Below are positions 335 through 47,266 of a stretch of DNA of 64,000 nucleotides, piece after piece. The notes under the pieces were generated by a model. It ran no database searches. It was not told the origin of the DNA and was given only the letters and a program-made list of their open reading frames with translations. Each line of letters begins with the position of its first letter. Positions within the stretch are counted from its first letter, which is position 1. The stretch lies in the sequence record OM386662.1; one strand, written 5' to 3'. The stretch comes from Escherichia phage vB_EcoM_ESCO47. The translations under genes were made by a program, and so were the position numbers.

Positions 335-675
335 CCAAAATATTGCTTTTATTGGTTAGTATAGCTTCATTTGCAGCAAACGCAGTCACCAAATATGCGG
401 AAGTTGTGGAGTATACAAATAGAACGTCTTCTGATTATTGTGGTAAAAACAAAGCGTGCCAGGTGGATTTTGCACAAAAACTTTTATATGCATACAAAGA
501 TGGAGAAAAAGACGGAATGTCTCCCTATAAGTCAGAGACATTAATTAAACGATACAATAAAAAATGGCAAGTACTAGAATGTTCGGCAGCGGCACCAAAG
601 GATAAAGCATTATGTGATTCTATGGTAGACCGCTTAGTTGATTCATATACAAGAGGACTAACTTCTTGTGATTAA
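331..675 (+). CDS. Small secreted protein, 114 aa, in the T4 vs position
   Basis: N-terminal signal-peptide-like hydrophobic segment; size and position match T4 vs (positional only). Confidence 0.45.
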   Translation: MTKILLLLVSIASFAANAVTKYAEVVEYTNRTSSDYCGKNKACQVDFAQKLLYAYKDGEKDGMSPYKSETLIKRYNKKWQVLECSAAAPKDKALCDSMVDRLVDSYTRGLTSCD

Positions 676-1135
676 AAACTATATCAAGGGCGATATCGTC
701 GCCCTGTTTTCTGAAGGTAAAAATATTGCTCATGGGTGCAATTGTTTCCATACAATGGCTGCCGGTGTAGCAGGTCAATTGGCTAAAGCTTTTCCTAAAA
801 TATTAGAAGCTGATAAGCTTCAAACCGAATGGGGTGATGAGACTAAACTTGGTTCATTTTCTGTTTACGAAAAGTATTTTAAAACTCATAAGGCATATTG
901 CTTTAATCTTTATACACAGTTTGAGCCGGGACCTAATTTTGAGTACTCTGCTTTAATGAATTGTATGTTAGAATTAAATGACTTCGGTAAAAATAAATTA
1001 GCTAAACCGGTAATTTATATGCCACGAATTGGAGCCGGAATTGGTGGTGGAAATTGGGATGTCATCGAAGAGATTTTAGATACGTATTCCACTAAACTAG
1101 AAATTGTGATTGTTGATTGGGAACCGTTATTATGA
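668..1135 (+). CDS. Macro-domain-like protein (candidate ADP-ribose binding/hydrolase), tk.4 position
   Basis: GDI...HGCNCFHTMAAGVAGQL and C-terminal IGAGIGGGNW glycine-rich loops resemble macro domain motifs; GTG start overlapping upstream stop. Confidence 0.45.
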   Translation: MIKNYIKGDIVALFSEGKNIAHGCNCFHTMAAGVAGQLAKAFPKILEADKLQTEWGDETKLGSFSVYEKYFKTHKAYCFNLYTQFEPGPNFEYSALMNCMLELNDFGKNKLAKPVIYMPRIGAGIGGGNWDVIEEILDTYSTKLEIVIVDWEPLL

Positions 1136-1735: not shown

Positions 1736-2317
1736 ATGGCTAGTTTAATTTTTACATATGCCGCTATGAACGCTGGTAAGTCTGCTTCATTACTTACTGC
1801 CGCACACAACTATAAAGAACGTGGCATGGGTGTATTAGTTCTTAAACCGGCTATTGATACTCGCGATTCAAAAGGTGAAATAGTCTCTCGTATTGGTATT
1901 CGTCAGGATGCCAATATAATTACAAAAGACATGGATATCTTTGAATTCTATAAATGGGCTGCAGCACAAAAGGATATTCATTGTGTATTTGTTGATGAAG
2001 CTCAGTTCTTAACTACTGAAAAGGTGTATCAACTTAGTCGTATTGTTGACGTGTACAATGTGCCGGTAATGGCATATGGACTACGAACAGATTTTAAAGG
2101 TAATCTATTTGAAGGTTCTCAAGCATTAATGGCTATTGCCGATAAGCTTGTTGAACTTAAAGGTGTCTGTCATTGTGGTAAAAAGGCCACAATGGTAGCT
2201 AGAGTCACGGAAGACGGACTTCCAATTACAGACGGCAGTCAAATTGAAATTGGTGATACCGATAGATATGTGTCATTATGCCGGAAGCATTGGAACGATT
2301 TGACAGGATTGTTATAA
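1736..2317 (+). CDS. tk: Thymidine kinase
   Basis: 193 aa; P-loop AAMNAGKS, DEAQF, C-terminal CxxC...C zinc motif; same length as T4 Tk. Confidence 0.9.
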   Translation: MASLIFTYAAMNAGKSASLLTAAHNYKERGMGVLVLKPAIDTRDSKGEIVSRIGIRQDANIITKDMDIFEFYKWAAAQKDIHCVFVDEAQFLTTEKVYQLSRIVDVYNVPVMAYGLRTDFKGNLFEGSQALMAIADKLVELKGVCHCGKKATMVARVTEDGLPITDGSQIEIGDTDRYVSLCRKHWNDLTGLL

Positions 2318-3317: not shown

Positions 3318-3872
3318 ATGATTATTGAAACATCTGTTCTGTTTGGCGACCTGACAGCCGATGTAATTGATAATGCAATCGTGCTTAAACAAGAAGATGA
3401 TACAGTTGTTCTGACCATCCGGGATATTCAGAGTCTGTACGACTTGTCTATTATTGACACAGAGCAATATATTAGAGCGAACAGTCGACTTTTTAAAATC
3501 AATGATGAAGTCGTTGCCCGGTTACATCGTGGTGAAAACGGTTTTAATCTGGAAACCGAATGGGTTTGTTTATCCATTAATAACCGTTCAGAATTTTTAG
3601 AGAAAATTTTTAAACTGTTCCAAGAAGAGTGTGTACCTGAGCTTGAGTGGAAAGTCCCGGGTTGTGATGCAGTTATGCATTCAAGCGAAACCTTTGAAGG
3701 TGATGAAGAAGGTGATTATAATACTGAATTCAGTGTCCACCAACATCAAGGTCGCGATATGTTATCTATCATCCAAACCCACGATGGTGAAGCTGAAGTA
3801 GTATTCACTAAAGACGAATTGAAAGTTCTGGTAAAATACCTGAACACTATTATCCCAACTATGAACGCGTAA
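3318..3872 (+). CDS. Hypothetical protein
   Basis: 184-aa ORF with GAGG RBS. Confidence 0.5.
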   Translation: MIIETSVLFGDLTADVIDNAIVLKQEDDTVVLTIRDIQSLYDLSIIDTEQYIRANSRLFKINDEVVARLHRGENGFNLETEWVCLSINNRSEFLEKIFKLFQEECVPELEWKVPGCDAVMHSSETFEGDEEGDYNTEFSVHQHQGRDMLSIIQTHDGEAEVVFTKDELKVLVKYLNTIIPTMNA

Positions 3873-3881
3873 GGAATTATT

Positions 3882-4322
3882 ATGATTATTAATACAAACT
3901 CTTGGCACGCTAAATTACACGACCATTTTTATGACTGTCATTCTCGACCACACTCTTTATGTGCTTACTTCTGGAAAATTGTATGGGTCTGCTTTATTTG
4001 TTCTGTGCTTGCAGGCAGTACAGTCTTCGGTTTAACTGTTGCAGGTGCTGGTGTATTAGAGCATTTCTTTGTATTAAGTACTCCTGTTAGTTTGAGTCTT
4101 GGGTTTGTTTTAGGGCTGGCTATACTAGCGGTAGCATTTGGTTTAATGTACAGTCTAATGAATTTATGGTCCTGGTACGATTTACGTAAAGAAGAAAAAG
4201 AATTAGAACGAATTAAAGCCAAGCGTGAAGGCCGAGAAACTAAAGAAAACGTTTTCATTCAATATATCAAAGCTTGTAAATCTAAGATGTGTCCGGTAAT
4301 CCACTTCGAGGACATTAAATGA
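3882..4322 (+). CDS. Integral membrane protein
   Basis: Several hydrophobic helices (VWVCFICSVLAGSTVFGL..., LGFVLGLAILAVAFGLMY). Confidence 0.5.
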   Translation: MIINTNSWHAKLHDHFYDCHSRPHSLCAYFWKIVWVCFICSVLAGSTVFGLTVAGAGVLEHFFVLSTPVSLSLGFVLGLAILAVAFGLMYSLMNLWSWYDLRKEEKELERIKAKREGRETKENVFIQYIKACKSKMCPVIHFEDIK

Positions 4323-5305
4323 GAACTGTTATGAAGGGCTATTTTGGCTCACATCTTTATGGAACTAGTACGCCAGAATCTGACGTTGATTTTAAAGAAA
4401 TTTATGTCCCTCATGCTCGTGATATCTTGACCGGTAACGTTAAAGAACATATGAGCAAGAACACGAATAACACATCTTCTAAGAACACAAAAGACGACGT
4501 GGACCATGAGTTGTATAGTCTCAAATATTTCTTTAAACTAGCTGCGGACGGCGAAACCGTCGCATTAGATATGCTTCACACTCCACAAAGTCTAGTAGTT
4601 AAATCTGATTTGCCTGATGTATGGAAGTATATTCAAGATAACAGGTCTCGTTTCTATACAACTAACATGAAATCTTATTTAGGGTATGTCCGTAAGCAAG
4701 CTTCCAAATATGGTGTTAAGGGTTCTCGATTGGCTGTTCTTCGTCAAGCCCTTAAACGTTCTAATGAACGGGGACAATACTTTGATAATGGTGCAGTAAT
4801 TCGTTTATCACATATGAAGAATGTTCTGCCTGTAGGTGAATTTGCTTCGTGGGTTGAAACCGAAAACGAGAAAACAGGTAAGCAAACATTCTATAATCTG
4901 TTAGACCGTAAATTCCAAGACACGTTAACCAATAAAGAGTTCAATGCCATCCTGGTTAAACTGGAAGAGAACTATGGTGAACGTGCTCGTAAGGCGGAAG
5001 CCAACGAAGGTATTGACTGGAAAGCATTGAGTCATGCATGTCGTGGTGGACTTCAACTATTGGAAATTTACAAAACCGGCGACCTGGTTTACCCACTTCA
5101 GGATGCTCCATTTATTCTCGATGTTAAGCTTGGTAAACATACATTTAAAACTGTACAAGAATTCCTAGAAGATATCGTTGACCAAGTTGAACAAGCATCA
5201 GAACAAGCCGCTAAGAACGGTATGCAACAAAAAGTAGATATGAGTTTCTGGGATGATTTCCTTGAGCAAGTCTATCTCGAAAATCATAATTCTTACTATA
5301 AATAG
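4319..5305 (+). CDS. Predicted Pol-beta-fold nucleotidyltransferase-like protein
   Basis: GSHLYGTSTPESDVDF matches the hG[GS]...D.D minimal nucleotidyltransferase motif. Confidence 0.45.
   Translation: MRTVMKGYFGSHLYGTSTPESDVDFKEIYVPHARDILTGNVKEHMSKNTNNTSSKNTKDDVDHELYSLKYFFKLAADGETVALDMLHTPQSLVVKSDLPDVWKYIQDNRSRFYTTNMKSYLGYVRKQASKYGVKGSRLAVLRQALKRSNERGQYFDNGAVIRLSHMKNVLPVGEFASWVETENEKTGKQTFYNLLDRKFQDTLTNKEFNAILVKLEENYGERARKAEANEGIDWKALSHACRGGLQLLEIYKTGDLVYPLQDAPFILDVKLGKHTFKTVQEFLEDIVDQVEQASEQAAKNGMQQKVDMSFWDDFLEQVYLENHNSYYK
5297..5304 (+). promoter_or_regulatory. Late-promoter-like TATAAATA box
   Basis: Exact TATAAATA about 29 nt upstream of ATG 5333. Confidence 0.3.
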
Positions 5306-39488: not shown

Positions 39489-39673
39489 GCAAATTAACTA
39501 AAGTTACTTTTATCGGTTGGTTTAAAAGCGGTGAGATGTTCACTAAAGATATCATGTTATCAGGTGATCGCGAAGAAATCGAGTGGGTTACGGTACAACT
39601 TGCTGAAGTGAACAACGCATTAGTTAAAGCATTTGTTAATGACGAGAAAGTTTTCGAAGCAGATTTTCGATAA
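39485..39673 (+). CDS. Hypothetical protein
   Basis: 62-aa ORF, ATGA coupling. Confidence 0.4.
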   Translation: MSKLTKVTFIGWFKSGEMFTKDIMLSGDREEIEWVTVQLAEVNNALVKAFVNDEKVFEADFR

Positions 39674-46332: not shown

Positions 46333-46511
46333 TGGATTTAATGAGCATGTTTGATGAGCCTGAAGTTGAGGCTCCTAAAGCACAACGTGGAGAACTCGTT
46401 GACGAACTGGACATTATTATACAGCGTCACGGGTTTAATCTTCCTATAGAAGTCCTGAAAGACCTAGCGTCTTACTACGATGATCCACCTCCTTGGGCCC
46501 CTTGGTCATAA
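46332..46511 (+). CDS. Small acidic ORF (59 aa)
   Basis: TAATG coupling; below ORF-track cutoff. Confidence 0.3.
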   Translation: MDLMSMFDEPEVEAPKAQRGELVDELDIIIQRHGFNLPIEVLKDLASYYDDPPPWAPWS

Positions 46512-46596
46512 CAGTTATCCCTCCTTAACGACGTGGTATCCAACTATCACGTCGCCTCTTAGAGTATACATCACTCACAATTTAGCCGAATTTTTA

Positions 46597-46626
46597 GTGT
46601 ACATCCTTAAAGAACAGTGTTACTAT
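46597..46626 (+). promoter_or_regulatory. T4-type early promoter
   Basis: GTGTAC, 18-nt spacer, TACTAT, TCTCCTATCAA box. Confidence 0.5.
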
Positions 46627-46654
46627 TCTCCTATCAACTTCAGGAGAAATCAAA

Positions 46655-47266
46655 ATGTTTTTACCTTATAATGAATGTGAAATTGAAGAAATGGTTCGCC
46701 GAGCACAAGACCCTGTGTTCCAAGAAGACCTGCAATACAAAATTGATGAAGTGTTCAGTGATTCTGAGCAGAGCACTCTTTGGCAGTGCATGGAAAATAA
46801 ACCGGATTGCATTCAACAAGAGTTGGATTCAATCATTCGTAAAAATTGGTCATCTTCTGTGCCAACGGTCCTTTATCGTGGAATTTCTAAGAAAACTCTA
46901 AAAATGTTAGATTCTGTAGGATGTGTAGGAGCTACTATCAAGTTTGACCGAGTAATGAGCTTTAGTTCAGTATTTGGTGTAGCACGTAATTTTGCTTCAC
47001 ACAATTTTTATGGAACTAAACAAATATTCTGTGTTAAGAATGCTCCATTCGCTTTTAACTTCAGAGAAACAATGCTTGACATGATTTTGGCTGCGCCATC
47101 TTGCGAGTTCAGCGGAGCTTTCCCTGAAGCGACTAGACGGTCTAATGTTCGTTTAGTATCTGATGAGTGTGAATTTATGTTCCCGATCGGGACTACACTA
47201 CGTGTAGATTCTGTTACTGAAGAAGGAACTTATCGGATATGGAATCTGTCTATTATCGGTTACTGA
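46655..47266 (+). CDS. ADP-ribosyltransferase, ModA/ModB-like
   Basis: 203 aa; LYRG (Arg motif), FSS, and ECEFMF (ExE) in the order expected for R-S-E ADP-ribosyltransferases; mod position. Confidence 0.55.
   Translation: MFLPYNECEIEEMVRRAQDPVFQEDLQYKIDEVFSDSEQSTLWQCMENKPDCIQQELDSIIRKNWSSSVPTVLYRGISKKTLKMLDSVGCVGATIKFDRVMSFSSVFGVARNFASHNFYGTKQIFCVKNAPFAFNFRETMLDMILAAPSCEFSGAFPEATRRSNVRLVSDECEFMFPIGTTLRVDSVTEEGTYRIWNLSIIGY

Follow-up and report, generated by a model that had tools for sequence, protein, structure and literature searches.

Phage T4 tk.4 is the closest described counterpart of the gene studied here, and its function was assigned in a November 2025 preprint (bioRxiv 10.1101/2025.11.20.689424). 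In a HIDEN-SEQ transposon screen, tk.4 was the sole significant T4 gene in a DarTG2-expressing host, a clean tk.4 knockout was DarTG2-sensitive, and the gene, dispensable on plain E. coli K-12, mattered specifically under DarTG2. The authors saw that its product structurally resembles M. tuberculosis DarG and gave tk.4 the new name adfM, for anti-DarT factor Macrodomain; enzymatic removal of ADP-ribose from DNA is put forward there as a proposal only, which "seems likely". In line with this role of adfM, resistance to DarTG2 had earlier been seen to persist in T4 deprived of adfA and adfN (PMC11825919). A second protein, gp104 of the chimallivirus phiKZ, was independently named AdfM in 2026; it is also a stand-alone phage macrodomain countering DarTG2, and in vitro it strips DarT2-made ADP-ribose from DNA (PMC13309987). 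Among the bacterial macrodomains, SCO6735 from Streptomyces coelicolor frees DNA thymidine of ADP-ribose and rescues E. coli from DarT, its substrates including DNA and protein; the Q85A variant is inactive, N27S is almost completely inactive and G128E has substantially reduced activity (PMC9411070). According to the same authors, this Gln sets SCO6735 and the ALC1 homologs apart from DarG and TARG1.

We analyzed a window of 64,000 nucleotides from Escherichia phage vB_EcoM_ESCO47 (OM386662.1), a T-even phage with ~91% DNA identity to Mosigvirus-like phages over 85% of the first 25 kb of the window. The macro gene lies in an array whose other genes were assigned by family searches:

50-334, C-terminal part of vs.1
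331-675, vs, valyl-tRNA synthetase modifier
651..657, + strand, Shine-Dalgarno-like AAGAGGA, read from the sequence, 10 nt before the GTG and within the 3' end of vs
668..1135, + strand, tk.4/adfM ortholog, a 155-aa single-domain macro protein with a GTG start and a TGA stop (1133-1135)
1132-1726, three small conserved phage genes, DUF7202 (tk.3), Phage_zn_bind (tk.2) and DUF7438 (tk.1)
1736..2317, tk, thymidine kinase

The order vs.1-vs-tk.4-tk.3-tk.2-tk.1-tk is the same in the window and in T4. When aligned with T4 Tk.4 (NP_049723), the ESCO47 protein shows 137 of 155 identical residues (88%) without a gap and with an E value of 2e-108. The two proteins have the same length, occupy the same slot of the vs-tk array and have all family-invariant residues in common, none of the 18 substitutions falling at an invariant position. 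The beginnings of the two genes differ, with a GTG and an overlap of 8 nt with vs in ESCO47, and an ATG and an overlap of 4 nt in T4. The macro gene holds the same array position in phages JK36, JK1, MY742, TG1, and Roth66; in the last four, which are more distant, it is located downstream of regB and upstream of tk, and it directly follows vs wherever vs is annotated. The partial phage CEV1 is among the nearest records, with 94% protein identity. For years, the T4 record has annotated Tk.4 as "phosphatase; contains A1pp phosphatase motif", and many related phage records already label the gene "macro domain protein" or "phosphatase". By its sequence conservation, 668..1135 is a conserved gene and not a chance ORF. 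It is also an already known one, the counterpart of T4 tk.4/adfM with its recently assigned function, and finding it in ESCO47 adds nothing new by itself. This identity went unrecognized in the first-pass annotation of the window, which had placed the gene upstream of tk; the placement is right, but the homologs of tk.3, tk.2, and tk.1 (1132-1726) intervene.

The GAGGA core of the 651..657 element is kept in JK36 and T4. The GTG of the macro gene overlaps the end of vs (vs stop, 673-675), and its stop codon shares an ATGA (1132-1135) with the ATG of the gene that follows; these overlaps with both neighbors indicate a tightly packed array that is probably translationally coupled. We found no σ70-like promoter directly upstream of the macro gene, and the base composition around it is unremarkable. 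A 9-bp hairpin is predicted at 648-670 (+ strand), in which the Shine-Dalgarno region 651-657 pairs with the GUG start codon 668-670, and the 640-730 segment has a fold z-score of -3.1. Such a pairing would fit a translation of the macro gene coupled to ribosomes finishing vs; T4 tk.4, with its ATG start, folds differently at this site from the GUG-containing hairpin of ESCO47. A second hairpin, AGGGCGAUAUCGUCGCCCU, with a perfect stem of 8 bp and a U-rich tract behind it, lies at 687-705 (+ strand), inside codons 7-13 of the macro ORF, and is built with GC-rich wobble choices. It is kept, with one loop base differing (C/U), in T4, JK36, and JK1, despite an overall identity of only 57% for the JK1 macro protein; MY742, TG1, and Roth66 lack it. 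With no covariation and no counterpart in the divergent phages, the 687-705 hairpin may stem from inheritance or mark a recombination boundary rather than act as a functional RNA element.

The first-pass annotation had proposed a macro domain from glycine-rich motifs and had named a profile search and a structure prediction as checks. The 155-aa ORF at 668-1135 carries all the quoted motifs, GDI, HGCNCFHTMAAGVAGQ, and IGAGIGGGNW, and this motif-based reading proved sound: the Pfam profile PF01661 (Macro) matches the protein at 25.8 bits against a gathering cut-off of 22, with an E value of 1.1e-5 and over 116 of 118 profile positions. An AF2 model built with the 71-sequence family alignment reached a pLDDT of 95.9 and a pTM of 0.91, single-sequence AlphaFold having given a meaningless model with a pLDDT of only 40. 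The model adopts the three-layer α/β/α macro fold, and its best Foldseek matches are TARG1, Poa1p, BT1257, and DarG, which places the protein in the ALC1/TARG1-like class. Its closest structural neighbors belong to this class and are clearly apart from the MacroD and viral classes. Searches of the PDB sequences with phmmer and with profiles recover BT1257, TARG1/OARD1, Poa1p, SCO6735, and three DarG macrodomains, and the PADLOC DarG model matches the protein at 2.6e-7, over the macro part of DarG. The conserved Asn and the two Gly-rich loops are present, with N25, G33, G122, and G124 kept in the family as well as in DarG, TARG1, SCO6735, and BT1257. It is thus nearly certain that the product of 668..1135 is a macro domain and the ortholog of tk.4.

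Invariance was judged over 71 family members, and the residues G33, A35, D49, G62, N80, Y82, T83, Q84, P119, I121, G122, and G124 are invariant in all of them. The active-site motifs are the following:

731..745, + strand, H22-G23-C24-N25-C26, equivalent to His24-Val25-Cys26-Asn27 (AHVCN) of SCO6735, the Asn being the conserved macro active-site residue
755..778, + strand, Gly-rich loop 1, M30-A-A-G33-V-A35-G-Q37, the ADP-ribose-binding loop, with G33 and A35 invariant
905..919, + strand, N80-L-Y-T-Q84, the catalytic-position motif, with Q84 in the column of TARG1 Lys84, DarG Lys80 and SCO6735 Gln85
1022..1057, + strand, loop 2, diphosphate-binding, P119-R-I-G122-A-G124-I-G-G-G-N-W130, with G122/G124 equivalent to SCO6735 Gly126/Gly128

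The residues of the first motif are invariant or nearly so in the family, G33 is common to DarG, TARG1, SCO6735, and BT1257 without exception, and loop 2 aligns to PRIGCGLAGGTW of SCO6735 and PRIGCGLAGGKW of BT1257. In the profile alignment, Q84 falls on the catalytic Lys84 of TARG1 and G126 (Ala in the family consensus) on Asp125, so that the Lys84/Asp125 dyad of human TARG1/OARD1 (4J5R) is replaced by Gln84/Gly126 in the ESCO47 protein. When family members were aligned by MAFFT together with BT1257, SCO6735, TARG1, two DarG macrodomains, and phiKZ gp104, the catalytic-column motif read LYTQ in the Tk.4 family, MIGQ in BT1257 and SCO6735, LITK in TARG1, and FPTK in DarG and phiKZ gp104. Pairwise alignment with SCO6735, in which query residues 113-146 were swapped for the SCO6735 segment as an anchor, sets N80-L-Y-T-Q84 on N81-M-I-G-Q85. 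The N-terminal part of this anchored alignment, including Q84/Q85, compares the window sequence itself with SCO6735 and agrees with the unanchored profile and multiple alignments, and its residue count reproduces the numbering of PMC9411070 for Val25, Gln85, Gly126, and Gly128. When query residues 62-155 were used alone, only the C-terminal loop aligned to SCO6735 and DarG, and anchoring to Thermosipho DarG did not extend the alignment; the equivalence of the DarG column rests on the multiple alignment, with TARG1 as a bridge, and on the structure-based statement in PMC9411070.

The pair Q84 and N25 of the ESCO47 protein corresponds to Gln85 and Asn27 of the SCO6735-type Gln DNA thymidine-ADP-ribose hydrolases, both being (nearly) invariant. 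The overall identity to SCO6735 (PDB 5E3B) and to BT1257 from Bacteroides (2FG1/2AFC) is only 23-30%, and two SCO6735-specific features are lacking in Tk.4. SCO6735 Val25, described as "backbone-catalytic" and considered by the authors an SCO6735-specific Val/Ile, is replaced by Gly23 in Tk.4, which is nearly invariant in the family. In addition, the mobile loop of SCO6735 with Lys89, five residues longer than in DarG/TARG1, is missing in Tk.4, where the alignment with SCO6735 and BT1257 leaves a gap of five residues after Q84-F85 of the ESCO47 protein. As judged from these alignments, the ESCO47 protein is SCO6735-like at the catalytic position and yet is no plain member of the SCO6735 family; because of Gly23 in place of Val25 and the absent Lys89 loop, the SCO6735 mechanism cannot simply be transferred to it.

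Comparison with the DarG macrodomains from Thermus aquaticus (5M31), M. tuberculosis (5M3I), and Thermosipho (7OMU) shows that the DarG catalytic Lys (TaqDarG Lys80, in FPTK) is absent from the Tk.4 family, which carries the invariant Gln84 (LYTQ) instead. DarG proteins comprise ~330-400 aa and include a C-terminal DarT-binding domain, whereas the ESCO47 protein has 155 aa and lacks that domain; the NCBIfam DarG model gives 27.5 bits against a cut-off of 250 and covers only positions 5-146 of 338. The DarG gene adjoins darT, while the ESCO47 gene is flanked by vs and tk.3. The phiKZ gp104 (L083:12518-13006), in contrast, keeps FPTK and matches M. tuberculosis DarG at 9e-25, and with only ~18% identity to the ESCO47 protein it represents another macro lineage. 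On these sequence relationships, the name AdfM appears to cover two independent recruitments, a T4-type with Gln and a phiKZ-type with Lys; both this name and the wording "DarG homolog" mask the difference. Yeast Poa1p (6LFQ) is a metabolite phosphatase; its His23 aligns with the conserved H22 and its Ser30 with T29, which is variable in the family, the offset between chain and native numbering of Poa1p having been deduced from the names of mutant PDB entries.

We propose that this stand-alone ALC1/TARG1-like macrodomain would be made early in infection from the vs-tk array. DarT2, of the host DarTG2 toxin-antitoxin defense, ADP-ribosylates thymidines in single-stranded DNA. The most likely job of the phage macrodomain would be to shield replicating phage DNA from DarTG2: it would bind this ADP-ribose and remove it by cleavage, leaving DNA that can again be replicated. 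The in vitro activity of phiKZ gp104, a different phage macrodomain, on DarT2-modified DNA speaks for such a reaction (PMC13309987). In the SCO6735-type site, which has no DarG/TARG1 catalytic Lys, Q84, held by Asn25, would position the distal ribose. To the fold, orthology, synteny, and conserved residues observed in this analysis, the T4 work adds the anti-DarTG2 phenotype, which comes from T4 tk.4 and hence from a protein that is not identical to that of ESCO47, given the 18 differing positions. By analogy with T4 Tk.4 and SCO6735, we infer a Gln-based mechanism and thymidine-ADP-ribose removal for the ESCO47 protein, and consider it highly probable that it acts against DarTG2 by such removal. 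Among the roles suggested in the first-pass annotation, countering host ADP-ribosylating defenses is the one backed by the genetics of the T4 ortholog (10.1101/2025.11.20.689424). As the T4-type AdfM is devoid of the DarG catalytic Lys and its active site resembles that of SCO6735, the residues to target in catalytic-dead controls are Gln84 and Asn25 rather than a lysine.

Protection could nevertheless be partly non-enzymatic, since the inactive forms of SCO6735 (Q85A), DarG (K80A), and TARG1 (K84A) still inhibit DarT in vitro by binding, SCO6735 most strongly (PMC9411070). A protein that mainly binds or blocks DarT2, or "reads" ADP-ribosylated DNA, rather than hydrolyzing the modification would also be in line with the lack of the canonical catalytic Lys in the Tk.4 family. 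However, the 155-aa protein has no DarG-like DarT-binding C-terminal domain, and even distant family members share without exception the residues needed for SCO6735 catalysis, the Asn, the Gln, and two Gly, a pattern that points to selection on catalysis; we therefore regard a mainly binding role as unlikely. Slightly less probable still is a housekeeping enzyme acting on ADP-ribose metabolites, either an ADP-ribose-1''-phosphate phosphatase or an O-acetyl-ADP-ribose deacetylase, as the old "phosphatase / A1pp motif" label implies. This label is a domain-name carry-over with no assay behind it. As regards T4 RNA repair, no phage pathway is known to make Appr1p. A housekeeping role is also at odds with the dispensability of tk.4 on plain E. 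coli K-12 and its specific importance under DarTG2 (10.1101/2025.11.20.689424).

Homologs of the protein that would remove thymidine-linked ADP-ribose are widespread: tblastn detects them in 2833 of 50,697 phage records (~5.6%), spanning T4-like, rV5-like, Felix-O1-like, Pseudomonas PAK_P-like, Vi1-like (Salmonella Det7, ~157 kb), and other phages, and 206 cluster representatives of the family are found in a large protein database. Such a wide spread suggests that large lytic phages commonly come under pressure from DNA ADP-ribosylation. With large lytic phages of many hosts represented in the 2833 records, the spread also exceeds what one target system alone would lead one to expect, and this, together with the activity of SCO6735 on DNA and protein substrates (PMC9411070), would suit a protein that counters another ADP-ribose-based defense, such as CmdTAC-like RNA ADP-ribosylation or ADP-ribose-derived immune signals, with DarTG2 as one target among several. 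Against such a role, which we hold to be very improbable, the CmdTAC report describes robust defense against T-even phages despite their tk.4 (PMC11618068).

A scan of bacteria, with one genome per species, yielded 380 confirmed relatives; it used family-specific peptide patterns, which cannot pick up true DarG genes. The best 80 of the 380, at 35-44% identity, are all stand-alone proteins of ~150 aa without a DarG-like C-terminal domain, and clustering of their neighbors indicates lineage-specific housekeeping genes. No DarT family occurs among the 25 commonest neighbor Pfams (140 adjacent ORFs at the best 80 bacterial loci), which counts against the proposed anti-DarT role. Six of these 80 loci, which represent at least three lineages (L030, L040, L055 (Ruegeria), L046, L069 (Bacteroidales MAGs), and L082), have a NADAR gene (PF08719, E values as low as 5e-53) immediately adjoining or overlapping the macro gene; it is positioned at ~3450-4010 of the locus, except in L082, where it is downstream, at 4520-4996. 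NUDIX genes adjoin the macro gene in three other loci. NADAR enzymes, of which T4 AdfN is one, remove guanine-linked ADP-ribose from DNA (PMC11825919), and their adjacency supports a role of the macro protein in DNA de-ADP-ribosylation. The NADAR-macro pair looks like a two-gene cassette for ADP-ribose removal from DNA, mirroring the separate AdfN and AdfM of T4.

The Gln-type active site, a putative origin independent of phiKZ AdfM and DarG, and the bacterial NADAR-macro pairing are the modest additions made here. When all parts are joined, the odds appear about even that Tk.4/AdfM is no captured DarG but belongs to a separate Gln-type stand-alone lineage related to SCO6735/BT1257, which would remove dT-linked ADP-ribose by a lysine-independent, water-mediated reaction; that AdfM activity arose at least twice in phages, as a Gln type in many large lytic phages, T4-like ones included, and as a DarG-like Lys type in phiKZ-like phages; and that bacteria pair the Gln-type macro protein with NADAR as a cassette erasing thymine- and guanine-linked DNA ADP-ribosylation.

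In seven Rhodobacterales loci of the bacterial set (L018, L024, L026, L033, L052, L054, and L056), the macro gene is followed, ~11 nt downstream, by a gene of the PF03372 endonuclease/exonuclease/phosphatase family of ~400 aa. This arrangement may be a lineage-specific operon.

The Mod-type ADP-ribosyltransferase reported in the first-pass annotation at 46655..47266 is real: its product, which has no Pfam match, hits PHROG 832, "RNA polymerase ADP-ribosylase", at 3.3e-39, and shares 33% of its residues with T4 ModB and 35% with ModA. As in T4, the gene is flanked by mrh-like genes and srd, but T4 carries a modA-modB pair where ESCO47 has a single Mod-type gene, about equally distant from both. 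The 320 nt upstream of it (46333-46654) contain no ORF of at least 80 aa. The T4 Alt and Mod enzymes modify arginine, and TARG1-class macrodomains are not known to cleave the arginine-ADP-ribose linkage. The idea, implied in the first-pass annotation, that the macro protein reverses or edits the ADP-ribosylation or RNAylation of host proteins by the phage's own Mod/Alt enzymes draws on the presence of this transferase, yet it can be set aside as very unlikely, given that a distance of 45 kb separates the two genes, which are not co-located, that the T4 screen phenotype is DarTG2-specific (10.1101/2025.11.20.689424), and that nothing found here connects them. Two further T4 counterparts are observed in the window:

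39494-39670, homolog of Dmd (antitoxin-like RnlA/LsoA inhibitor), 56% identity
40782-41429, homolog of T4 61.2 (AdfA, anti-DarT factor), 65% identity over its full length

With the AdfA homolog and the macro gene, the window carries at least two anti-DarT genes.
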